The translations under genes were made by a program, and so were the position numbers. A stretch of DNA of 64,000 nucleotides from an uncultured Candidatus Saccharibacteria bacterium (GTDB lineage: Bacteria > Patescibacteriota > Minisyncoccia > Minisyncoccales > CAYJUL01), in assembly GCA_964401295.1 (NCBI GenBank), contig CAYNXX010000001.1, forward strand, positions 137,076 to 201,075, written 5' to 3'. The notes under the pieces are model-generated. The model was given only the letters and a program-made list of their open reading frames with translations, was not told where the DNA came from and made no database searches. Positions 1-46,777 of this stretch are shown here, piece after piece; position 1 is the first letter of the stretch, and every line of letters starts with the position of its first letter.

Positions 1-1246
1 CAAACCCAATAATTACAGATCGCTGCATACCACCTGTTTTTGTCTTGACGGAAAAATTACGGAGATACAGATAAAAACCCGCGAAATGCATATTGAAGCT
101 GAAAATGGCATCGCGGCCCATTGGGCTTATAAAGAGGGGCTCGATTTGAAAAATAAAAAATTCGCCTGGGTTAAACAATTAATGGATTGGCAAAAAGAAA
201 TTTCCGGATCAAAAGAATTTTTGGAGCGCCTTAAAATAGATTTCTTTAAAAATAGAATTTTCGTCCTTACGCCCAAGGGAGATGTGATTGATCTGCCGGA
301 GGGTGCAACGCCAGTTGATTTTGCCTATAGCGTACATGGTGAAGTGGGCGAAAAATGCTCCGCCGCAAAAATCAATGGGAAAATCTCCACCTTAAACTCC
401 GAACTTCATAATGGCGATCTTGTTGAGATTATAACCGAGAGAAATAAAAAACCATCTAGGGACTGGTTGGAATTTGTAAAAACCGCAGCAGCAAGAACTA
501 AAATAAAGGAGTGGTTCAGAAAAGAATCTCGTCCAGAAAATCTTACAAGAGGTATAGCATTGCTGAATGAAACCTTCAGATCAATAAGGGGCATTTCTTT
601 TGCCAATATTGACCAACACAAAAAGGATAAACTGCTCAATATTTTCCACTACAGAGATCTTGATAGTTTGGCCGTAGCCGTGGGCCAAGGAGAAGTTTCT
701 CCGGGGGAAATTTTAAAATCTGTATTTGGAGAGCGCGATTTGTTGTCCCGGACTCCAAAAATAGAGCTTGCGCGCAATGAAAAAATCGCATCGGGCAAAG
801 CTGCCATAGTCCTAGCTGGCACAACCGGCATAGCAATCAAAATCGCAAAATGCTGCCTTCCTCAGCCGAATGAAAAAATAATGGCCTACATTTCAAAAAG
901 CAAACCGGCTTCAGTCCATAAAGAAAATTGTGTCAACTTTTTATCGGCAAAAGAAAAATGGCCTCAAAAAATTATAGAGGCCTCTTGGACGAAAAACGCT
1001 GCCAATGCGCCATATCTTACAACTCTCTCAATTCTTACCGAAGATAGAATTGGACTCCTGCGCGATATTACATCGCTGATAAGCTCAATGGATATAAATA
1101 TTGTCGGATGTTACACCCAACCAAAATCTGCCACTGATAAGGCAATCGTTAGATTAACTTTAGAGATAGACGGAATTAAAGAGTTAGAGCAGGTTTTTGA
1201 ACGGCTCAAAAGCGTAGATGGCCTATTGGAAATCAAAAAAATCTAA
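1..1246 (+). CDS. relA: GTP pyrophosphokinase / (p)ppGpp synthetase-hydrolase RelA/SpoT, 5'-truncated at the window edge (TGS and ACT C-terminal part present)
   Basis: The frame is open from base 2 upstream of the first ATG at 86. The translation reads YRSLHTT...EIQIRTREMH..AENGIAAHWAYKEG, which is the conserved RelA/SpoT synthetase-to-TGS junction. The C-terminal ACT-like region is present. Confidence 0.85.
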   Translation, partial: KPNNYRSLHTTCFCLDGKITEIQIKTREMHIEAENGIAAHWAYKEGLDLKNKKFAWVKQLMDWQKEISGSKEFLERLKIDFFKNRIFVLTPKGDVIDLPEGATPVDFAYSVHGEVGEKCSAAKINGKISTLNSELHNGDLVEIITERNKKPSRDWLEFVKTAAARTKIKEWFRKESRPENLTRGIALLNETFRSIRGISFANIDQHKKDKLLNIFHYRDLDSLAVAVGQGEVSPGEILKSVFGERDLLSRTPKIELARNEKIASGKAAIVLAGTTGIAIKIAKCCLPQPNEKIMAYISKSKPASVHKENCVNFLSAKEKWPQKIIEASWTKNAANAPYLTTLSILTEDRIGLLRDITSLISSMDINIVGCYTQPKSATDKAIVRLTLEIDGIKELEQVFERLKSVDGLLEIKKI

Positions 1247-2121
1247 GATTTAAGGCGCTGAAGCAAGTCATTTATCTCCTGTTTTGACTTAAAGGAAATG
1301 ATAAGCTTGGGCCTTCCGGCTTCTAAACCGAACTTCAAATTTTCAATCCCAAAAATCTCTTTTGCTTTCTGCTCAAAAGTTTTCAATTCCCCCAAAAGAG
1401 CAATATGCCTTTTCGGCGCGGTCCAAATCTGTAGTCTTTGGGCAAAGCGCTCTGCATCGCGCACACTCAATCCGTCTTTTTGTATTTTTGCGAAAACTAT
1501 TTTTTGCTGCCCGGAATCTCGAGCCATCAAAATAGCTCGGGCGTGACCCTCGCTGATTTTTCCTTCTTTGATTGAAAACCTAATTTCTTCAGGTAAAGAT
1601 AAAAGACGCATAGTATTGGCAATTGCTTCACGGCTCTTACCAACTAGTTTCGCGATACCTTTTTGATGAAAGCCGAATTCATCCTGTAGTCTTTTATAGG
1701 CCTCGGCGCGCTCCAACGGATTCAAATCCATTCTTTGTACATTTTCTACCAGAGACAATTCCAATTTTTGGCGCGGGTTGGCTTCGCGTATTATCACCGG
1801 CACGCGTGAAAAATTAGCCATCTTCGCGGCTAAAAGTCGACGTTCTCCGGCGATCAACTGATATTCTGTTTGTCCGGTTGCATTATTTTCAATCCTGCTC
1901 ACAACCAGTGGCTGCAAAATTCCATGAGTCCGGATTGATTCGGCTAGAGCATCCAAGGCCTCTTGGTCAAACTCACGCCGAGGCTGATAGGGATTCGCTT
2001 TTATCTTTTCTATCTCTATAGAAAAAACCGCTTCTTTCCTTGATTCCGGCACGGTTAAGCTTGCCGGTTCAGATTTTTTGGGGATTAATGACTCCATCCC
2101 CTTTCCAAATTGCTGTGGCAT
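1243..2121 (-). CDS. parB: Chromosome partitioning protein ParB (Spo0J)
   Basis: ParB box motifs (GERR...; HTH region LVENVQR) are present. It lies directly downstream of parA on the same strand. An alternative start at MESLIPKK is possible. Confidence 0.85.
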   Translation of the reverse strand: MPQQFGKGMESLIPKKSEPASLTVPESRKEAVFSIEIEKIKANPYQPRREFDQEALDALAESIRTHGILQPLVVSRIENNATGQTEYQLIAGERRLLAAKMANFSRVPVIIREANPRQKLELSLVENVQRMDLNPLERAEAYKRLQDEFGFHQKGIAKLVGKSREAIANTMRLLSLPEEIRFSIKEGKISEGHARAILMARDSGQQKIVFAKIQKDGLSVRDAERFAQRLQIWTAPKRHIALLGELKTFEQKAKEIFGIENLKFGLEAGRPKLIISFKSKQEINDLLQRLKS

Positions 2122-2127
2122 ATGATT

Positions 2128-2952
2128 TTATCCGGCGGGTTTTATTTCATAAGAATTTTGAGCCAAAGCATAACCTTCTCTTATTTTTTGCAGGTCAATC
2201 AATTCTTGGGCGATTTCTTTATAAGCTCGGGTGGCCAAGGACGCCGGCGCATAATGGAAAATAGTTTTGCCAGCCCGTGGCGCTTCGGCCAAAGCTACCG
2301 AACGCGGAATTACCGTACGAAAAACATAGCCTGGAAAATTTTTCCTGACCTCCTGCGCAACTTCTCTTGAAATCTTGTGGTGACTATTATACATCGTTAG
2401 CACTGCGCCGGCTATATTTAAATTGTGACCAAAATTATTTCTTATTAAACTTATCGTTGATAAAAGCTGGTTTAAACCTTCAAGCGCAAGGTATTCACAC
2501 TGCACCGGAACTAAAACATCGTTCGCCGCAGATAAAGCATTAATGGTCAAAAGTCCTAGACTCGGCGGAGAATCAATAAAAATAAAATCATAATCCTCGC
2601 TTATTTTTTCCAGAGTCTTGGCGAGTTTCGTTTCGCGCTCATGTACTGATACGAGTTCCACCTCCGCGCCGGCCAAATCCTGCGTTGAGGGCATAAGATC
2701 ATAGCCGAAAAACGGAGTCCTGCGTACCACGGCTCTCGGATTTACGTTGCCCAAAAGCGCATGATAGACGGAAATTGGAATATTTTTCGGATGAAAGCCC
2801 AAAGAATAAGTGGCATTGGCTTGGTGATCAAAATCAACCAGCAAAACTTTTTTCCCGAGCGACGCTAGAAAAACGGGCAGATTAACGCTTAAATTGGTCT
2901 TACCGACGCCTCCTTTATTGTTGCAAATCGCTATTATACGCGCCATTACCAA
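2128..2952 (-). CDS. parA: Chromosome partitioning ATPase ParA (Soj)
   Basis: Deviant Walker A motif KGGVGKT (IAICNNKGGVGKTN) is present. The parA-parB operon order is conserved. The true start is probably MARIIAI at 2946. Confidence 0.9.
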   Translation of the reverse strand: MVMARIIAICNNKGGVGKTNLSVNLPVFLASLGKKVLLVDFDHQANATYSLGFHPKNIPISVYHALLGNVNPRAVVRRTPFFGYDLMPSTQDLAGAEVELVSVHERETKLAKTLEKISEDYDFIFIDSPPSLGLLTINALSAANDVLVPVQCEYLALEGLNQLLSTISLIRNNFGHNLNIAGAVLTMYNSHHKISREVAQEVRKNFPGYVFRTVIPRSVALAEAPRAGKTIFHYAPASLATRAYKEIAQELIDLQKIREGYALAQNSYEIKPAG

Positions 2953-3013
2953 ACATTAACATAGCTTTATTTCATTTACAAATAGTCAATTTTTTGATAA
3001 AAAAAGTGATCGC

Positions 3014-3100
3014 GCCCGGGTGGCGAAACTGGCAGACGCACAGGACTCAAAATCCTGCGAGAGCAATCTCATGAGGGTTCAAGTCCCTCCCCGGGCACCA
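3014..3100 (+). tRNA. tRNA-Leu (anticodon CAA), class II with long variable arm, CCA encoded
   Basis: Acceptor GCCCGGG pairs with CCCGGGC. U8 is present. The D-arm GGCGAAACUGGCAGACGC is Leu-like. The anticodon stem is CAGGA/UCCUG with loop CUCAAAA. A long variable arm and T-arm GAGGGUUCAAGUCCCUC are present. The sequence ends A-CCA. Confidence 0.85.
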
Positions 3101-3132
3101 AAACTAACTTTGTCGGAAATGACTGCTCCGCG
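3095..3132 (+). repeat. Copy A of the 37-nt tRNA-3'-end-associated site (gcaccaaaactaactttgtcggaaAtgactgctccgc); one mismatch versus copies B and C
   Basis: Direct comparison with 45085-45121 (same orientation) and 46672-46708 (reverse complement). The single difference (A versus T) falls in the central AATT. Confidence 0.9.
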
Positions 3133-3275
3133 CGCCCCGATAAAAACTGCTAAAGATCTGTAAAAACATCGGCTCGAACCATATTTTGTAAAAGCAGGGG
3201 GGAATTTTTTTTAAAACTGAATACTTGATTCTAAAATCAACAACCTCGCTGATTTTTTGTTTCTGATACAAGCTA

Positions 3276-3303
3276 TTGACTTTTGTTTTGTGTATTATAT
3301 AAT
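3276..3303 (+). promoter_or_regulatory. Sigma70-like promoter (TTGACT, 16-nt spacer, TATAAT) for small ORF P1; a strong SD AAAGGAGG lies at 3335-3342
   Basis: Consensus hexamers were read directly from the sequence. The SD sits 6 nt before the ATG at 3349. Confidence 0.6.
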
Positions 3304-3348
3304 ATAACTGGCGCCTAAGAAAACGGGTGGCCAGAAAGGAGGATTGCT

Positions 3349-3663
3349 ATGGACCATAGCAACCTTGCAGGTCAGAAGTATTCCCACAGTCAATGTGTTC
3401 ACGGCAGGTGCCTTGACCACGGACCGGAGTGGGAAAACGTCGGTGAAGTGCGGCGCGAGCCCAATCCAGGAATCTTCGGTAAGAAGACCTCCGGGATGAA
3501 CCGTTGCTGCGGCAAGCCGATGACGCAGTACAAAGAAGTGCAGACGCAGCGGTGTCGTAAATGCGGACGTACCAAAGATCACATAACGAACTACCGCCTC
3601 GTATTCTGCCTCTGCTGCGGCTACCACTTCACCAAGTCCGGCAGCTCATTATTTACCCCCTAA
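3349..3663 (+). CDS. Small Cys-rich hypothetical protein P1 (104 aa, 10 Cys, CxxxxC / CC / CxxC / CxCC pattern); visibly GC-rich compared with the host
   Basis: The ORF has a consensus promoter, a strong RBS and an intrinsic terminator. Its G+C is visibly above the ~35-40% of flanking genes. It lies between the tRNA-Leu-associated repeat copy A and the hairpin motif m1. Confidence 0.6.
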   Translation: MDHSNLAGQKYSHSQCVHGRCLDHGPEWENVGEVRREPNPGIFGKKTSGMNRCCGKPMTQYKEVQTQRCRKCGRTKDHITNYRLVFCLCCGYHFTKSGSSLFTP

Positions 3664-3680
3664 TGGTCGAGATGTAACAA

Positions 3681-3722
3681 GGGGGTTGCGGGAGAAATCT
3701 CGCACCCCCTTTTTCTTTTTTT
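3681..3722 (+). terminator. Rho-independent terminator of P1 (GGGGGUUGCGGGA-GAAA-UCUCGCACCCCC, GNRA loop, followed by a U-run)
   Basis: The hairpin and T-run (TTTTTCTTTTTTT) were read directly from the sequence. Confidence 0.75.
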
Positions 3723-3782
3723 CGTTTTTGAAATTATCCGGTTCGCGGCGAAGCCACTCATTTTTTGTGGGAGTTTCCTCGC

Positions 3783-3816
3783 CGCTGTAGGCGGCGAAAT
3801 GCATTTGAACTATTTT
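3783..3816 (+). repeat. Motif m1: short GC hairpin (cgccgcTGTAGgcggcg) plus the tail aaatgcatttgaactattttaag. It is related to inverted motif m2 at 42868-42901.
   Basis: About 29 of 33 nt are identical to the reverse complement of 42868-42901, and the upstream hairpin is analogous. Both sit at the tRNA-distal end of a GC-rich islet. Confidence 0.6.
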
Positions 3817-3876
3817 AAGAATTGGGTACTACAAAGACGGGCAGAAAGCCCGTCTTTGTGACCGCTCAAATACTAG

Positions 3877-4404
3877 TTATTTAAACCGCCTGACAAGGCT
3901 TGGCGCAAAAGAAACAACCAACCATCCGCTCAAAATACCTATAACCGCTCCCCCTACAACATCTGTCGGCCAGTGGACGCCCACGAAAACGCGGGCTAAA
4001 GCTATTGCACTGCTGGCAAGCAAAAATGCAACGCCGGCTTTTTTGTTATAAAGATAGAAAACAGTTGAGAGCGCGAAATAAAAAGTGGCGTGGCCAGACG
4101 GAAAAGAATCATAAAGTGGTTCCCTACCGACGAGCGGAATGATATTTCCGTTAACAAACGGTCTTGGACGCGCGATAAAAAAACGTATAATCTCGGCAAC
4201 AATAAATCTTGAAAAAAATGCGGCAATTAATCCCTGCCATACCATCGGCCAGTATTTTTGGGCACGAAGCAAAAGAAAAATCGGTATGGTTAAAAGTAGT
4301 GCGTATCCCGCATATGTGGCGAAAAAAATAGCCACCGTGTCTAACCAGATATATTTCAATGTAAATCCGTTGATTAGCCTAAAAAGATATTGATCTATGG
4401 TCAT
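3877..4404 (-). CDS. PAP2-family phosphatase (undecaprenyl-diphosphatase / PgpB-like) membrane protein
   Basis: PAP2 signature motifs are present: RPRP, SFPSGHA and GVHWPTDV. Confidence 0.8.
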   Translation of the reverse strand: MTIDQYLFRLINGFTLKYIWLDTVAIFFATYAGYALLLTIPIFLLLRAQKYWPMVWQGLIAAFFSRFIVAEIIRFFIARPRPFVNGNIIPLVGREPLYDSFPSGHATFYFALSTVFYLYNKKAGVAFLLASSAIALARVFVGVHWPTDVVGGAVIGILSGWLVVSFAPSLVRRFK

Positions 4405-5561
4405 ATTTTTAGATTTCCATTAGCCTTTATTTTTTCTAGATAGGATTTTTTGCCAGCTTTTTGCGCGAAATATCCGGCTATTGCGGCCATAACTCCGTTA
4501 TCTGTGCAAAACTGCGCTTCGGGAGCAACAAAAGCAATATCTGGCGATTCGTTTTTCAATCTCTGTTCCAGTTGACGCCTTAATTCATTGTTGGCCGCAA
4601 CTCCGCCGCCGATTATCACCATCTTAGCATTATAATTTCTAGCCGCGCGGATTGTTTTTTTAACCAAAACGTCAATTATGGCCTGCTGAATTTCAGAGGC
4701 CATTGCCCAAATATAATTCTTGGACATTCTTATTTCCTCCGGCTGCGTTCGCCAATTATACAAAACTGCAGTTTTAAGTCCGGAAAAGCTAAAATCACAA
4801 TCCTGACTTTTGATCATCGGCCGCGGCAATTTAAGTTTCTCTTTATATTTATATTCGGCGCGTTTAGCCGCTTCTGCTATTGCCGGCCCTCCTGGATAAC
4901 CTAGTCCCAAAAGCCGCGCAGTTTTGTCAAAACATTCACCGGCCGAATCGTCCCTCGTCTCACCTATAATCTTATAGCTTCTCGGCTTTTTTGCCAAAAT
5001 CAGCATCGTATGTCCGCCCGACACAAGTAGGCAAATAAAAGGAAATTTATATGGCAGATCCGACAGATTAAGACAGCTCGTTAGAAGATGCGCCTCCAAA
5101 TGATTAACCGCAAAAATTGGTTTATTCCACCAAATTGCTAAAGTTTTCGCAAAATTTATGCCGGTCCAAAGCGCCGGCTCAAGCCCTGGACCATTGACTA
5201 CTGAAATTAAATCTATTCTTGGCACGCCATAATTTTTTAAAAACTTAACCGTACTGGCATAAAATTTTGGCTCTCTTCCCAATATTTTTTTAACTTTTTG
5301 ATTTTCGGATTGTAATTTTGACTTTTGATTTTTGGGTTTTGATTTTAACAATCCCGATAGACTCAAGGCCTTCTTTAATACCGGCACAAGATTGCGTTGA
5401 TGTTCTCTTTTCGCCAACATCGGCACAACACCGCCCCATCTCATGTGAATTTTCACCTGCGAAGAAACGATATCGGAAAGAATTTTAAAATTGTCGTTTT
5501 CTGAATCAACAATCGCTATTGCGGTTTCATCGCACGAAGTTTCAATGCCGAGTATTTTCAT
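4401..5561 (-). CDS. tsaD: tRNA N6-adenosine threonylcarbamoyltransferase TsaD (Kae1/Gcp family) with a lysine-rich insertion
   Basis: The N-terminus reads GIETSCDETAIAIV. The HxxH-type metal site and the C-terminal ASKAC fold are consistent with TsaD. Confidence 0.85.
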   Translation of the reverse strand: MKILGIETSCDETAIAIVDSENDNFKILSDIVSSQVKIHMRWGGVVPMLAKREHQRNLVPVLKKALSLSGLLKSKPKNQKSKLQSENQKVKKILGREPKFYASTVKFLKNYGVPRIDLISVVNGPGLEPALWTGINFAKTLAIWWNKPIFAVNHLEAHLLTSCLNLSDLPYKFPFICLLVSGGHTMLILAKKPRSYKIIGETRDDSAGECFDKTARLLGLGYPGGPAIAEAAKRAEYKYKEKLKLPRPMIKSQDCDFSFSGLKTAVLYNWRTQPEEIRMSKNYIWAMASEIQQAIIDVLVKKTIRAARNYNAKMVIIGGGVAANNELRRQLEQRLKNESPDIAFVAPEAQFCTDNGVMAAIAGYFAQKAGKKSYLEKIKANGNLKI

Positions 5562-5735
5562 GGCCTTAAAATTTTATATAAAAACTGATTAGATAGATCT
5601 TTTTGATGACTGACGCATCACTATTTTAAGAATTTTAATTTTATTTTCCGTGGTTAATTTTATTACTTTCATAAACTACCATGCCATATCTTAAAATAGT
5701 TAATCGGGTAGGCTAGTATACTATGGCAAATAAAT

Positions 5736-6677
5736 TTAATATTTATTGACGTGCTCCAGTGCCAATTTTACAGCGCCAATAACAGGTTCGCTGCGCGGCA
5801 AAACAAAATAAACTCTCCGTGCCACCTTTTTAATTTCAGCCTCAACCTCCTTTGTCACCCATTTTGAACGGAATAGTCCACCGCTTAAAACTACAGGAAA
5901 TTCCCTTTTATCTAAATTAAGTCTTTTAATAACAGTTAGGGCTGCCAGCGCAAGTTCATCGCCGGCCGAAATTAATATTTTTTTTGCCGCCTTATCGCCT
6001 CTTTTGGCGGATGCATCAACCAAATGTGAAAATGAGGCAACTTTCTCAACCAAATCCAAAGTGTATATCATTTCTGTAAGATCCTTAGCTTTTTTAACGC
6101 GCCATTTTTTGATAATCGCCATGCCCAATTTACTCTCCTTCTTGCGGCCGTCCAGCTCATGGCATAGCATTTGTAAAACTTTTTGACCGATCCAAAAAGC
6201 TGAACCCTGATCACCTAAAATATAATCCCAGCCGCCGGCAATCGCCTCGTTGTCGCCGCGCCAACCCATGGCAATCGATCCAGTGCCAGCTATGACAACC
6301 ACGCCGTCGCCACAATCGCTGCCGGATCTGAATGCGGCTTTTTGATCTCCTTCTACTGCAATAATTTCATGCAAATTCGCAAATTGCGGAAGCGCTTTTA
6401 AAAGATAACTTTTTATCGTCTCTCTTTTTTTTGTATTGCGCTCCAGAGAACCAGCAAGAGCTATATATATAGAGGCGATTTTATTTTTATTCATGCCGAT
6501 AGAAACTTTTTTTATCGCCGATTTTAAAACTTCGATTGTCTGATCATATCCAACTTTATTTGGATTAGAGGGGCCGAACAAGGTTCTTTTGATAATTTTT
6601 CCGGATGAATCAGCTAAAACGGCGATGGTTTTGGTGCCGCCGCCGTCTATGCCTATGACAAAATTTTTGCTTTTCAT
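5736..6677 (-). CDS. BadF/BadG/BcrA/BcrD-type ATPase (N-acetylglucosamine kinase-like)
   Basis: The N-terminus reads GIDGGGTKT. Acetate and sugar kinase / Hsp70 / actin fold motifs are present. Confidence 0.7.
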   Translation of the reverse strand: MKSKNFVIGIDGGGTKTIAVLADSSGKIIKRTLFGPSNPNKVGYDQTIEVLKSAIKKVSIGMNKNKIASIYIALAGSLERNTKKRETIKSYLLKALPQFANLHEIIAVEGDQKAAFRSGSDCGDGVVVIAGTGSIAMGWRGDNEAIAGGWDYILGDQGSAFWIGQKVLQMLCHELDGRKKESKLGMAIIKKWRVKKAKDLTEMIYTLDLVEKVASFSHLVDASAKRGDKAAKKILISAGDELALAALTVIKRLNLDKREFPVVLSGGLFRSKWVTKEVEAEIKKVARRVYFVLPRSEPVIGAVKLALEHVNKY

Positions 6678-6748
6678 ATATATTTTTATTATATTTTCTT
6701 TTTTTTATTATAAACAGATTAAAAAGCGGTCACAATGCCGCTTTTGTT

Positions 6749-7027
6749 TTAGCCGTAACTCGACTTATCATTTAGTGCAGTTTCGAAACGCTCCCGTTCA
6801 CTACCCATCCAATAGCCGAAAATTGCCATAAAATCTTTAAAGCAAGCGTCGCAAAGCTCAATATATCCTTCTATCTCTGGCTTAATAAAACCGTGGGCTA
6901 TTAAAGAAAAAAGTTGCCTTATATGACGCAAAATCCAACTCCAATAACCTTCTTTGCCGACAGTTTTTATTCTGTTGCCCGCGCCCCATTCGTTTATCCT
7001 TACCCCACAGCGCATGCAGTTTCTCAC
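6749..7027 (-). CDS. Small zinc-ribbon-like hypothetical protein (CMRCG...CDAC)
   Basis: The ORF overlaps the downstream gene start by 4 nt (operon-like). No recognisable family was found. Confidence 0.4.
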   Translation of the reverse strand: MRNCMRCGVRINEWGAGNRIKTVGKEGYWSWILRHIRQLFSLIAHGFIKPEIEGYIELCDACFKDFMAIFGYWMGSERERFETALNDKSSYG

Positions 7028-8304
7028 TTTTGCCTCCTTTGTTTTTTAAAATTTTTAAATTGCGAATAAAAAATGGTCTTGTCTTCTACCAAATCTTGCA
7101 CCATAGCATTCGGTCCAATAATACAATACGAACCAATAAGTGCACCGGGCATTAGACTTGCGCCGACTCCGATATGCGATTTTTTGCCGACAATGGCGCC
7201 CAAAGATGCAAGCTCGGTGTTTATTTTCCCTTTTTTAGAATAAGCTCTAACGATTCCTCTGTCAAACCTAACGTTTGCCGTAATCACGCCCGCACCGATT
7301 CTGCAGTCCGAGGAAAAAACCGAATCGCCGAAAAATCCAGAATGGCAATGGACATCATCGCCAAAAGAACTGCGCGCGATTTCGGCATTTGCGCCGATGA
7401 TGCATCTTTCTCCTACATCAACATAATCGCGCAAAAGCGTATTATTTCCAACAACCGTTCCTTTGCCTATATAAACCGGGCCCTTGATAACCGCATTTTC
7501 AAAAATCTTTACCTTCTCGCCGATGAAAACCTTTCCGCTTATGATTGCATTCGGTGCAACTTTCACACTTTTGGCGATAAAATATTTCAAATATTTATCA
7601 AACAGATATTTTTTAATTTCAGAAATGTGCCATGGATATTTTAAAGACGGGCTTTTTGTGCCTTTTTGCAATAACAGCGCTGCCAAATTATGATCTTTTG
7701 TATAGGCCGAGAGGGCTGCCTCAAAATCATATGCGCCGCGTTTAGTTTTTTTATAGACATCAAAAAATCCTGGCTCCAATAGATAAATACCCACTGCTCT
7801 TATTTTTGATGGTTCTTTCCCCGCTTTTGGCTTCTCAACAATCTCAGCAACCTTAGACCCTCTCATTTTTATTATTCCATAAAGCTCGGGTGTTTCCGTT
7901 TCTTGGCCAACGAGCAAGCCTGCGCCGCGCCTGGTAGGATATTTTTTCTTCATTTCCGAAATTATTTCTTCGGCATCTATTCTTGAGGCATTTAAAACAA
8001 AGAATGGACCGGAAAGCAGACTTTTTGCCTGCCATAGGGCATCACCCATACCCCTTGGCTCTTTTTGCGTGACGTAGTGTATCGCCGCGCCGGTCATCGG
8101 ATAATTTTTTATAACGGCTTCGATCTCTCTATTTTTTTCCTGCACGATAATAATATTTTTAATGCCGGCGCGTTTTAAAGCCGAAATTGTATAGTAAATT
8201 AAGGGCTTGCCCATTATTTTGAAAAGGACTTTTGACTGGAAATTTAGCGGCCAGAAGCGCGATGATTCGCCGCCAGCCAGGATTACCGCCGAAATATTTT
8301 TCAT
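7024..8304 (-). CDS. Sugar-1-phosphate nucleotidyltransferase with C-terminal left-handed beta-helix (hexapeptide repeats); GlmU/RmlA-like bifunctional architecture
   Basis: The N-terminus reads AVILAGGESSRFWPL, an NTP-transferase G-loop. The C-terminal half contains repeated [LIV]G-x4 hexapeptides. Confidence 0.75.
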   Translation of the reverse strand: MKNISAVILAGGESSRFWPLNFQSKVLFKIMGKPLIYYTISALKRAGIKNIIIVQEKNREIEAVIKNYPMTGAAIHYVTQKEPRGMGDALWQAKSLLSGPFFVLNASRIDAEEIISEMKKKYPTRRGAGLLVGQETETPELYGIIKMRGSKVAEIVEKPKAGKEPSKIRAVGIYLLEPGFFDVYKKTKRGAYDFEAALSAYTKDHNLAALLLQKGTKSPSLKYPWHISEIKKYLFDKYLKYFIAKSVKVAPNAIISGKVFIGEKVKIFENAVIKGPVYIGKGTVVGNNTLLRDYVDVGERCIIGANAEIARSSFGDDVHCHSGFFGDSVFSSDCRIGAGVITANVRFDRGIVRAYSKKGKINTELASLGAIVGKKSHIGVGASLMPGALIGSYCIIGPNAMVQDLVEDKTIFYSQFKNFKKQRRQK

Positions 8305-44098: not shown

Positions 44099-44800
44099 CT
44101 AGCTGAGGTTCTTGATCGGGGTGGAAACATCGATCTCTCGCCAGTCGAAAAAGATGCGACAAATGCCCGCATCAACTAGCGCGCCTATTGTGATGCCACG
44201 AATCACAACCGGCATCCCAATAGCCTTGGAACCAGCGGCGAGCGCGGCTTTCACGCCCGGTGGCGAATCCTCGAAAACAAGCTGCTCATGGGGATCAATC
44301 TCCATAATTGAGGCAGTTTTCAAGAACACATCCGGCGCCGGTTTTGGGTTCGCGACGTGCTCACGGAGCACAATGTTGCGCTGACCAAAAAGTACCATGA
44401 GACCAGATCGCTCAAGAAGCGTTATCGCGTACTTCTTAGGCGTGAGCGATCCGATTGCGAACTTAAGGCCAAGATTACGCACCTCTCTGAAGAAATCTAA
44501 GAATCCGACGCGGGGCTCGATTGGCATCTCCGCAAGTAGACGTTCGTAGTGAAATTTGTTGCGAGCCAAGATGTCATCGACAGATAAACGATTGCGTGTG
44601 TCGGGATCCAAAAGATCCCGGATATCCTCGCATACCTTTTCGTCAGGTCCACCGATGAAGTGAGGAAGCTTGCTATAGGCTTCGTCGAGCGAGATCCTAA
44701 GTCCTAATTCGCTTGCGACGGCGAGATGTCCGTTATGGTGAGCGACCTCGACATCAACAACAGTGCCTTAGAGATCAAAGGCGATTCCACGAATAGGCAT
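44099..44800 (-). pseudogene. HAD-superfamily hydrolase (beta-phosphoglucomutase-like) interrupted by an in-frame TAA inside the catalytic DxDGT motif (MPIRGIAFDL*GTVVD)
   Basis: The ATG at 44800 gives MPIRGIAFDL, then TAA at 44768-44770. The same frame then continues GTVVD...DSPPGVKAALAAG to 44099. Motifs II-IV are intact. Confidence 0.7.
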
Positions 44801-45084
44801 TACCCATCTCCTTCTTTCTGGATTTTAACTGTCAAGGAACGATCATATAATAACAGAGTTGAATTTAAATGTAAATAGTTAACAAAACAGAGTCCGTAAG
44901 AAATTCTGCGATAAAATCATATGAAATTTTTCTTATCAGTTCTAAAAACCGTCGGCGCAAACTTTTGGGGGCAACGACAGTGCGGGAATTTGCCTCCCCT
45001 CGCCCCCTGTCTTTCCCACCAGAGCGGTTTGGGATTTTACGAAATGCCGCATCAAAAAAGGTTCGCGCGAAATGTATAATTACA

Positions 45085-45156
45085 GCACCAAAACTAACTT
45101 TGTCGGAATTGACTGCTCCGCTTTTGTTTTTGCCGTAAAATCCCAGAGTTCGCCCC
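45085..45156 (+). repeat. Left terminal inverted repeat (copy B, 72 nt) of the recombinase module
   Basis: Nucleotides 1-36 are identical to the reverse complement of 46673-46708. Nucleotides 37-72 match the reverse complement of 46591-46626 with one mismatch. Confidence 0.9.
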
Positions 45157-45165
45157 AATAACCAT

Positions 45166-46769
45166 ATGAAAGAGCTCAAACCAAAAACTCAATGCATTCT
45201 CTATGCTCGGAAATCAACCGAGGAGGATGATAAGCAAGTGATGAGCATAGAAGCTCAACTGTTTGAATTGCGCGAATTTGCCGAGCGAGAACGCATTGAG
45301 ATAATCCGTGAGTTCACGGAAGCGGAAAGCGCAAAGAAACCCGGACGAGAGGAATTTGCCAAAATGCTTTCCTTAATTGAAATAAGCAAAAAGCCGCTCG
45401 GCATTTTGGCATGGCACCCCGATCGTCTCGCCCGCAATAGCGTGGACGGCGGCAGAATCATTTATCTCGTGGACACCGGAGCTATTGCTTCTTTGCGCTT
45501 TCCGCAATTTTGGTTTGAGCCAACTCCGCAAGGGAAATTCATGTTGCAAGTGGCGTTCGGGCAATCAAAGTATTTCTCGGATAACTTGGTTGAAAATGTG
45601 AAGCGCGGTATCCGCCAAAAACTCAGCCGCGGCGAATGGCTGACGCTCGCTCCTTTGGGATATGTGAACAACTACAAAATACGGAACATTGACCCGCACC
45701 CTACTTACGCAAAAGTCATCAAGCGAGCGTTTGAAGAGTACGCCACGGGAAAATATACGCTCGTCGGTTTAGCGGAGTTTTTAGCGGGGCATGGCGTTGT
45801 TCAGAAAAAAGGAACGCCACTTGCAAAAGTTTCCGTCGTGAAAATGCTTACTAACCGAGCATATCTAGGATTTGTAAAATTTCATGGCGAATACCACGAC
45901 GGAAACTTTGAGCCGATTCTTTCCCCGACACTGTTTGAAGCAGTACAGAAAGTATTGAAAAGCAAGCAAAGACCGCGCAAACAGAAAGAGCGATACGATT
46001 TCCCTTTTACGCAGTTTGCGCGGTGCGGCGAGTGCGGAAATATGATTACGGCGCAGTATGCCACCAATCGCTGGGGCACGCGCTATACTTACTACCGTTG
46101 CACCAAGAAAAGCGGGCATTGTAGCCAGCCGTATCTTTCCGCCGATACGCTCGCCGCCCAAGCGCAAACCCTGTTTCAATCAGTGTCGCTTCCTCTCGCG
46201 GAAATTGAGGTTATGGAAAAGCAGATTGACACACGGGAGAAAGAAGAAATTTCCGCGAGAGGAGATGTTGCCCAAAATCTTAAAGCAAAACTCAAGAGGC
46301 GCAGGAGAAGCTAGGCCGGCTTGTCTCGCTCTATTTGGACGACGACATCGAACGAGAACTCTATCTCACAAAGAAAGACGCGCTCCTTCGCCAAAAAGCC
46401 AAGCTGGAAGAAAGTTTGGGAGATTTTGGGCAACAGGGAAAGAATCAGCTCGAACCCTTGCGGAGTTTCGTTTTGTCCTTGAGAGAAGCGGAAAAAGTGG
46501 CGCAAACAAAAAATCACGCCGACTGGCGCAACTTTTTCCGTTCGCTCGGCTCTAACCCCGAGATCAAGGATAAAACGCTTTCAATCAACTGGGGCGAACT
46601 CTGGGATTTTACGGCGAAAACAAAAGCGGATTTTGCCCTGCGGAGCGAGCCGTCCGCCGCGCGGACGGCGAGCGGAGCAGTCAATTCCGACAAAGTTAGT
46701 TTTGGTGCGCCTACGAGGATTCGAACCCCGATCTCGAGCTCCGGAAGCTCGTGTTCTATCCATTAAACT
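45166..46769 (+). pseudogene. Large serine recombinase (resolvase/invertase N-domain, recombinase domain, zinc ribbon, coiled-coil) with a -1 frameshift near 46294-46296
   Basis: The N-terminus reads CILYARKSTEEDDKQ...SIEAQ, containing the catalytic Ser. The C4 zinc ribbon reads CGECGNMITAQY...YYRCTKK. Frame 1 ends ...KAKLKRRRRS* at 46314. The coiled-coil continues in frame 0 (..KEAQEKLGRLVSLYLDDDIERELYL...). Restoring one A in 'ctcaagag' joins the two. Combined length is ~534 aa. Confidence 0.75.
46591..46708 (-). repeat. Right terminal inverted repeat (copy C) with a 46-nt GC-rich palindromic insertion (GCCGUCCG-CCGCG-CGGACGGC)
   Basis: See copy B. The outer end begins at the GCACCA 3' end of tRNA-Arg. 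Confidence 0.9.
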
Positions 46770-46777
46770 ATGGGCGC
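46703..46777 (-). tRNA. tRNA-Arg (anticodon CCG), CCA encoded
   Basis: The reverse complement is GCGCCCAUAGUUUAAUGGAUAGAACACGAGCUUCCGGAGCUCGAGAUCGGGGUUCGAAUCCUCGUAGGCGCACCA. The fold is a cloverleaf with anticodon loop UUCCGGA and a T-loop UUCGAAU. There is one C:A mismatch in the acceptor stem. Confidence 0.8.

Follow-up and report, generated by a model that had tools for sequence, protein, structure and literature searches.

What kind of genetic unit places a lone recombinase gene between two long inverted repeats, one of which ends exactly at the 3' end of a tRNA gene? The question is raised by a locus in a stretch of 64,000 nucleotides (nt) from an uncultured Candidatus Saccharibacteria bacterium (GTDB lineage Bacteria; Patescibacteriota; Minisyncoccia; Minisyncoccales; CAYJUL01), taken from contig CAYNXX010000001.1 of assembly GCA_964401295.1 (positions 137,076 to 201,075, forward strand). 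We call this whole stretch the window, and we have compared it with related loci and contigs that carry labels such as L001 or L087. The answer that we consider likely is that the window holds a decaying and probably immobile copy of a small, widespread mobile element of Patescibacteria, which is driven by a large serine recombinase (LSR) and inserts site-specifically at about nt 70/71 of tRNA genes.

A repeat search of the window recovered two pairs of arms, one of 38 nt that is 100% complementary (45085-45122 and 46671-46708) and one of 41 nt that is 98% complementary (45117-45157 and 46590-46630). Combined, these form a left repeat of 73 nt that is mirrored on the right with about 46 extra GC-rich nt (approximately 46631-46676); a GCGGA/TCCGC repeat leaves the bounds of this extra segment uncertain by 5 nt. 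We refer to the repeat as X and to its inverted copy as X'. An initial annotation of the locus had described repeats of about 72 nt around the recombinase and had placed their outer end at the GCACCA of tRNA-Arg, and both statements are borne out. The terminal GCACCA of tRNA-Arg(CCG) provides the outer 6 nt of the right repeat, which is the extent of the overlap, and the same six bases open the left repeat. The annotation had also taken the GC-rich segment to be a palindromic insertion of 46 nt into the right repeat, and this must be revised. Four relatives (L001, L003, L004 and L024) carry the segment in both repeats, and an alignment shows that it encodes conserved residues of the recombinase tail. 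The segment is therefore ancestral, so that the left repeat of the window has undergone a deletion and the right repeat no insertion.

The sole real gene between the window repeats is that of the LSR. Its open reading frame (ORF) ends prematurely and continues in another frame, and the gene cannot be translated intact as it stands. When one base is repaired, the product has 533 amino acids, in good agreement with the roughly 534 first proposed, and a profile search with the repaired protein matched the resolvase (PF00239, E 5e-20), recombinase (PF07508, E 8e-13) and zinc-ribbon (PF13408, E 3e-9) domains that had been suggested for it. The motifs YARKST and HPDRLARN are present in the window protein and invariant among 12 homologues, as are the cysteines C287, C290, C312 and C319. 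The catalytic domain possesses the serine nucleophile and the conserved Arg and Asp residues of the class, and the recombinase domain and zinc beta-ribbon lie C-terminal to it, as they do in LSRs generally. The best relative of known structure is SprA/YokA of SPbeta, with an E value of about 1e-4, and the matches to the NCBIfam models CcrB and XisF fall far below the family cut-offs. We take the window protein to be a bona fide but divergent LSR. Exact-protein look-ups with the frameshifted LSR ORF and with the adjacent methyltransferase (two alternative starts) matched no record.

Alignment with four relatives (L001-L004) shows that the window lacks 1 nt at about 46291-46292, where it reads AAAC-TCAAGAG against AAACTTTCCGAG. 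A deletion of this size had been noted earlier; it stands, and only its assignment to an A-run is not clear. Because the NCBI record of the same contig lists a truncated LSR product of 358 amino acids, the frameshift is a property of that assembly, and in this assembly it is real. Programmed frameshifting was considered and rejected, since none of the relatives has the shift. The C-terminal codons had been thought to lie in the right repeat, and the ORF does cross it, but its end lies beyond, in the antisense strand of the tRNA gene. This is a general property of these recombinases. Among 57 relatives, all 57 lack a stop codon for the LSR ORF within the element; the ORF ends in the antisense strand of the flanking tRNA or farther out, and the last residues of the protein consequently depend on the insertion site. 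The tail that is added beyond the repeat is poorly conserved. We estimate the chance of such an ORF at about 0.1 per lineage for 45 codons, and chance does not readily explain 57 open-ended ORFs in 57 cases.

A search with the LSR protein returned about 7000 matches. The best 120 of these are 57-92% identical and come nearly all from Patescibacteria, of Parcubacteria-type lineages, and many matches lie on contigs of only 1.7-2.3 kb. From species-representative genomes we sampled 80 LSR loci, and in 59 the recombinase lies between inverted repeats that are 58-147 nt long, with a median of 124 nt; they are near-perfect and in many cases 100% identical. In 55 of these 59 loci a convergent tRNA gene shares the last 3-6 nt of its 3' end with the 3'-side repeat. 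Loci of which one end is cut off agree with these in their tRNA or in the upstream block. Ten isotypes serve as targets (Leu, Glu, Gly, Ala, Ile, Arg, Lys, Tyr, Phe and Met). In both repeats, the 3-6 nt farthest out equal tRNA nt 71-76 and covary with the type of tRNA (GCAC.., TCAC.., CCAC.., GGAC.., CTCC..). A scan of metagenomes located the outer arm of the window-type X in 85 contigs, where one identical join point leads to many tRNAs, for example Val and five Leu isoacceptors.

Whether repeat and recombinase recur together had been proposed as the test on which the original description should stand or fall, and the 59 loci show that they do; the window-type arm is present in the 85 contigs as well. 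Recurrence across genomes excludes an assembly artefact as the source of the architecture, and we regard it as extremely improbable that the window arrangement is a chimera, a fold-back product or a chance repeat. An independent Logan assembly of SRR5161805, the only other assembly of this genome, does break about 70 nt beyond the tRNA and gives no information on the frameshift, and many contigs end in or near the repeats, but breaks of this sort are expected from real repeats. Moreover, the same architecture is found in more than 55 independent assemblies that derive from many studies and assemblers and include contigs longer than 100 kb, and the two window copies differ by the 46-nt indel and one substitution, unlike a fold-back product. 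A phage integrase was also entertained as the origin of the LSR; this idea was dropped because a search of IMG/VR viral contigs with a single LSR and with a 12-sequence alignment revealed no relatives.

If the unit is mobile, where are its ends? In all families, including those that are only about 45% identical in protein, sequence is conserved outside the left repeat. The conserved block consists of a -35-like hexamer, a 17-nt spacer that contains GGTTCG(C/A)GC, and a TATAAT that ends 4 nt before the repeat, with GTTCG located at -24 or -23 from the repeat boundary in about 45 loci. We use PR to denote this block of 160-360 nt outside the left repeat, with its promoter and its GGTTCG-containing arm. 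Upstream of it, in 20 of the 30 loci with enough flanking sequence, lies a divergent gene of 67-73 codons for an XRE-type helix-turn-helix (HTH) protein, and variable co-oriented genes are found within a few bases of the HTH gene. In 11 of the 30 loci, and in L087 too, the entire PR is repeated in inverted orientation 1.8-3.6 kb further out. Where this distal PR ends on its outer side, identity with the proximal copy stops after a core of 3-8 nt (GCAC, GCACCA, GCACAAAG, TCA or CCAC), and beyond this core the sequence resembles a native tRNA trailer with an intrinsic terminator. Junctions of the form PR-core-B', with shared cores of 3-8 nt and terminator-like trailers, were found in L003, L008, L009, L012, L027 and L028, and a core of 3-8 nt is what the three types of junction share.

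Complete elements measure 3.6-4.5 kb. Read from the tRNA, their order is tRNA, core-X-LSR(antisense)-X'-core-PR'-HTH and cargo-PR-core, and then the displaced tRNA end with its trailer and terminator. X is in this setting a leader of 110-140 nt, and 1-4 variable cargo genes accompany the XRE-type HTH gene. The junction of tRNA and X looks like an attL site and that of the distal PR with the host like an attR site, while the internal PR/X junction looks like a second, intact and inverted attP, which would also supply the LSR gene with its promoter and 5' leader. What the initial annotation took for "terminal inverted repeats" are the two copies of X. They are not the outermost conserved sequence of the mobile unit, since the PR, the HTH gene and the second PR lie outside them, nor is the target interrupted exactly at both repeat ends, for only the right repeat adjoins a tRNA (L010 is an exception). 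In 55 loci and in the window, an integrase gene is found beside a junction at which the tRNA's 3' end is rebuilt from element DNA. The relatives also possess the second junction, with the displaced half of the target and the shared core, which is not seen in the window. This anatomy points to a site-specific integrative element bounded by attL and attR, and not to an insertion sequence (IS) with terminal inverted repeats.

These data bear directly on the alternative that the locus is an IS-like transposon, in which repeats of 73-140 nt are the terminal inverted repeats, the LSR acts as transposase, and the repeat-LSR-repeat cassette moves between tRNA 3' ends. The cassette is indeed compact (1.6-1.9 kb), and many metagenome contigs are about as long as the cassette; contigs of this size are, however, what assemblers put out at perfect repeats longer than the k-mer. 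A transposon of this kind would leave the conserved promoter block, the HTH gene, the cargo and the second PR unaccounted for, as all of them lie outside the left repeat, and the displaced tRNA end is found 2-3.6 kb away, consistently beyond the cargo and not at the repeat. In tandem arrays, the type of PR matches the type of LSR across the cargo. One case in favor of transposition is L010 (3798-5622), where a cassette without a promoter block is situated between two different tRNA-Leu genes (caa and gag). Identity between its repeats is no more than 94.6%, which suggests and fits either recombination between two elements or a reaction of the internal attP with a second tRNA, and such an event would imply a chromosomal rearrangement between tRNA loci. 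On balance, we consider a transposon of this type quite unlikely. What endures of the IS-like module first proposed is a real, recurrent LSR unit beside a tRNA that resembles a mobile element, and the mobile unit does not end with its repeats; the accompanying claim that no IS or Tn family matches it also holds, as none was found.

Tandem arrays provide a further view of how these elements are organized. L089 contains one (197-7112), with the order tRNA-Leu(caa), X2-LSR2-X2'-PR2'-HTH/T5orf172/EcoRI-type methylase/GmrSD-HNH-PR2, X1-LSR1-X1'-PR1' and onward. LSR1 is the closest relative of the window LSR (92% identical) and its X has the same hairpin; LSR2 belongs to a subfamily that is 43% identical to the window LSR. 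Deleting the inner unit in silico yields a canonical tRNA-X1 junction. Arrays are also found in L090, L091 and L156, and the inner cargo is restriction-modification-like; the layouts of L152 and L091 fit circles as well as arrays. In the metagenome contigs, the same join point of the X arm that leads to tRNAs leads as well to its own PR and to several foreign types of PR, which mark junctions inside arrays.

The host locus of the window comprises genes for an amino-acid permease, MgtC and an EF-Tu-D2-like protein on one side, and tRNA-Arg(CCG), a methyltransferase gene and ELP3 on the other, and it is conserved in L086 and L087. Comparison of the three shows different states of the same site. 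L086 has no element at the orthologous tRNA-Arg(CCG), and the window has the LSR cassette. L087 (5810-6260) has a PR, the HTH gene, an N6/N4 methylase with other cargo and a distal PR, and a perfect X/X' palindrome of 50 nt replaces the LSR cassette; the hairpin also follows the distal copy of the PR (1924-2146). From this structure the L087 element may be a non-autonomous derivative. The possibility that the tRNA is itself cargo of the element was rejected because in L086, L087 and the window alike the tRNA retains the gene order of the host, as do the genes on its far side. The unoccupied tRNA trailer of L086 (5700-5850) contains GTACGGAATTGAG, which resembles GTCGGAATTGAC of the window X and is placed about 10 nt closer to the tRNA end; this motif could be a native half-site of the attB side, an old remnant, or a chance similarity.

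Remnants were encountered as well. Eleven tRNA-X junctions in metagenomes have no LSR, and several of these are evident deletion scars. Deletions at CGCG(C) microhomology, between the X hairpin and GTTCGCGC of the PR arm, leave short tRNA-X-PR scars in L109, L140, L154 and L095. The window contains a partial third copy of X beside tRNA-Leu(caa), its only other tRNA, and about 40 nt past this copy there is a degenerate block in which GGTTCGAGC appears as the reverse complement (3173-3181). The region of the third copy looks like the deletion scar of a second element.

How might an element of this structure integrate? We propose strand exchange by the LSR inside the core, with an attP (PR-core-X) on the excised form as one partner and as the other an attB composed of the 3' half of the tRNA and its trailer. 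The element-borne nt 71-76 would replace the displaced bases and the tRNA would stay functional. Since X begins with tRNA nt 71-76, integration would rebuild a functional tRNA, and the outer bases of both repeats would for this reason vary with the target. The LSR would read GGTTCRA of the tRNA T-loop as a half-site of the attB type and GGTTCG of the PR as one of the attP type. A T-loop half-site would explain how related enzymes can use many different tRNAs.

Two features of the sites can be compared with this proposal. First, the outer 25 nt of X are similar to the PR arm read as its reverse complement; the peak lies at an offset of +1, where identity is 36% against 24% for shuffled sequences (z = 7.8, a value that is inflated because the sites are related). 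A serine-integrase site with its centre at nt 71-72 would, we infer, show a pseudo-dyad of this kind. Second, GTTC of the T-loop is 18 nt from the boundary and GTTCG of the PR is 24 nt from it, an offset of 6 nt. In work on site recognition by serine integrases, Rutherford, Van Duyne and colleagues (2013) reportedly placed the zinc-ribbon motif of attP half-sites farther outward than that of attB half-sites, by about half a helical turn. By this analogy, the 6-nt offset is consistent with one half-site of each type. For the duplicated, inverted attP, the explanation that we prefer is that the second copy would keep the unit of promoter, leader and LSR intact after integration, which would otherwise separate the PR promoter from the LSR.

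The presence of two inverted att-like sites with the same core also invites a different interpretation, an inversion switch. The LSR would flip the segment between these sites, so that its gene is located after its own promoter in one state and after the tRNA in the other, and each X would in turn serve as the tRNA 3' end. Both copies do carry tRNA nt 71-76, although covariation of the core is explained equally well by rebuilding of the tRNA on integration, and the near-100% identity of the repeats suggests an ongoing exchange. About 67 loci have the order promoter-LSR-tRNA and only 2, L018 and L042, show tRNA(+)-X-LSR(+), in which the LSR is co-directional with the tRNA. The junction in these two is precise, but their contigs end inside the element and may reflect assembler mis-paths through a perfect repeat. 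Further, the HTH gene always adjoins the PR that is proximal to the LSR, and recombination of attP with attL is not known as a usual reaction of LSRs. For these reasons an inversion switch seems unlikely as the explanation of the locus; inversion as a side reaction is possible.

Several considerations weigh against our view of the locus as a copy of a tRNA-targeting integrative element. The half-site symmetry is modest, and the 32 sites used to calculate it are phylogenetically related. Neither an excised circle nor an experimentally empty site was seen for any element, and L086, whose proteins are only 68% identical to those of the window host, could owe its "empty" state to an ancient loss. 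Canonical serine-integrase elements keep no intact attP after integration, in contrast to the inverted duplication of attP here. The near-100% identity of the repeats would call for gene conversion or recombination that is ongoing. No candidate for a directionality factor was identified. Finally, the window has no attR, HTH gene or second PR, and its assignment to the family rests on homology of the LSR, of X and of the promoter stub.

With these reservations, a broader model can be put forward tentatively, as a possibility well short of an even chance. It postulates a clade of LSRs for which the near-universal T-arm and acceptor end of tRNA genes form a natural attB half-site, such that closely related enzymes act at many tRNAs. 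The twin inverted attP would preserve an intact attP together with the promoter-LSR unit, and would permit further reactions of attP with tRNA genes with no need for a directionality factor. Hopping, stacking of alternating LSR and cargo cassettes at tRNAs, and chromosomal rearrangements from one tRNA to another, as perhaps in L010, would follow. If this is true, these elements constitute an apparently undescribed cargo-shuffling system of the ultra-small genomes of Patescibacteria, and they provide serine integrases for which any genome already has landing sites.

How much of the element survives in the window? Outside the left repeat, similarity to the relatives is limited to positions -38 to -1, and most of the promoter block is missing. 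A generic sigma-70 scan did not flag the remaining stub because its -35 is degenerate, and since a TG dinucleotide is displaced by one position we do not claim an extended -10. A tblastn search found no HTH gene in the window, and a second PR or an attR was sought with a regular expression, by BLAST (word size 7) and by local alignment, with no significant result. The HTH gene and most of the PR would be expected between a truncated HAD hydrolase gene and the left repeat, where they are absent. L050 carries two HAD genes as cargo, and the HAD gene of the window is probably a truncated remnant of cargo. To judge from its sequence, the window copy is a decayed fossil, with a frameshift, the 46-nt deletion in the left repeat, a truncated PR and neither HTH gene nor attR, and it is probably no longer able to excise by the proposed route. 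For practical purposes it would be annotated as a pseudogene and a remnant. The features are collected in Table 1.

Table 1. Coordinates in the window of the element copy, its target tRNA gene and associated remnants
Feature	Position	Strand	Remarks
Stub of the conserved promoter/P-arm block (PR)	45051-45084	+	GTTCG at 45061-45065; TATAAT at 45075-45080, ending 4 nt before the repeat
Left inverted repeat X	45085-45157	+	Putative LSR 5' leader and P'-type arm of the attP-like site; first 6 nt copy tRNA nt 71-76; 46-nt hairpin deletion
LSR, N-terminal reading frame (382 aa)	45166-46314	+	Catalytic domain, recombinase domain, zinc ribbon; 1-nt deletion leads to stop at 46312-46314
LSR, C-terminal reading frame after the frameshift	46293-46766	+	Crosses the right repeat; stop within the tRNA-Arg antisense strand
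Right inverted repeat, full-length X	46590-46708	-	Reads outward from the tRNA; holds the ancestral GC-rich hairpin (~46631-46676); attL-like junction with the tRNA
tRNA-Arg(CCG), putative integration target	46703-46777	-	Last 6 nt from the repeat; same host locus in L086 and L087
HAD hydrolase gene, 5'-truncated	44099-44611	-	Pfam HAD_2 positions 69-177 of 178 only; N-terminal third, with the catalytic motif, missing
Partial third copy of X	3095-3136	+	37-42 nt with 95-97% identity; immediately follows tRNA-Leu(caa) (3014-3100)

The repeats have some properties that concern the transcript and the protein more than mobility. WGELWDF, a nearly invariant motif of the protein, is encoded at the inner end of the right repeat (46590-46612), and the complement of this stretch in the left repeat (45135-45157) lies directly upstream of the ribosome-binding region and of the start codon, and many families have the ATG inside the repeat itself. 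With this placement in both repeats, the same bases are under constraint as protein and as leader, or as a DNA site. It follows from the repeat sequences that the 5' and 3' ends of a full-length LSR mRNA could pair. When X sequences from several families were folded as RNA, they displayed strong local hairpins followed by U-rich tracts, with overall z-scores of -0.1 to -1.9, which are not significant. A role for X as terminator or attenuator is only a suggestion from this modelling.

Among known systems, the closest parallels are the elements and prophages that use serine integrases (phiC31, Bxb1, A118, SPbeta with SprA, CcrAB of SCCmec, and XisF). These have the same three-domain recombinase, and the sequence matches to the SprA/YokA structures and to the CcrB and XisF models are weak but specific. 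They also share junctions of the attL/attR type with only a short core, an attP-like site with two pseudo-symmetric arms of about 25 nt, and a half-site spacing that differs between the arms of host and element. In contrast to these systems, the element described here targets the 3' ends of tRNAs of many isotypes, which is classically a habit of tyrosine integrases. It also retains a second, intact and inverted attP, and its LSR ORF, lacking its own stop codon, continues into the tRNA of the host. It differs further in its size of about 4 kb, in having no phage or conjugation genes and no IMG/VR relatives, and in NCBIfam scores far below the cut-offs.

Tn4451 with TnpX, Tn5397 with TndX and the IS607 family resemble the element in that mobility depends on a serine recombinase alone. 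In Tn4451, expression of the recombinase is coupled to the joint of the element ends. None of these has long inverted repeats or tRNA specificity, whereas here the promoter is in a duplicated attP arm. IS607 elements encode a small recombinase with an N-terminal DNA-binding domain, an order of domains unlike the LSR order of the window protein, which scores 25 bits with the IS607 model NF033518 against a cut-off of 110 and so falls outside that family. The 2-micron plasmid of yeast, with FLP, offers an analogy only. The circle that would be formed here has LSR and cargo segments between two long inverted repeats, each with a target for the recombinase; the plasmid, however, uses an unrelated class of recombinase, has repeats of 599 bp and replicates, while the element has no replication genes and no circle of it was observed.

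A parallel of another kind is found in the tycheposons of Prochlorococcus, which are tRNA-targeting islets with tyrosine integrases and direct repeats of partial tRNA sequence of about 40 nt (bioRxiv 10.1101/2020.12.28.424599). Both are small cargo elements at tRNA 3' ends in streamlined genomes that carry a replacement tRNA end, and in both, tandem arrays and degenerate remnants pile up beside the tRNA (bioRxiv 10.1101/2020.12.28.424599). The Patescibacteria element differs in its serine recombinase, its core of 3-8 nt and a double inverted-repeat layout that tycheposons do not have.

In the literature that we could search, from which most subscription journals are excluded, we found no description of LSR elements at tRNA 3' ends of Patescibacteria or of the double inverted-repeat layout, and the family is apparently undescribed. 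What appears to be new is the target class, which is unusual for a recombinase of this type, together with the retained inverted attP and the open-ended integrase ORF. The mobile elements of Patescibacteria, also known as the Candidate Phyla Radiation (CPR), are poorly known, and the genomes of these hosts are tiny and hard to study. The family appears to be common, given the thousands of protein matches and the recovery of the arm alone from metagenome contigs. Its cargo is varied and includes restriction-modification genes, hydrolases, transporters and toxin-like genes. This variety, along with the scars at tRNA genes, makes the elements a plausible route of gene flux and rearrangement in Patescibacteria. 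With respect to the biology of recombinases, the family would bring together a serine integrase and targets in tRNA genes. As serine integrases are tools of genome engineering, enzymes that read a conserved feature of tRNAs would be of practical interest.

Two minor observations concern the window as a whole. Just upstream of tRNA-Leu(caa), at 1243-2952, there are ORFs for a ParB-like protein (292 amino acids) and a ParA-like protein (274 amino acids), identified by inspection of their sequences only. The GC skew is negative across nearly the entire window.

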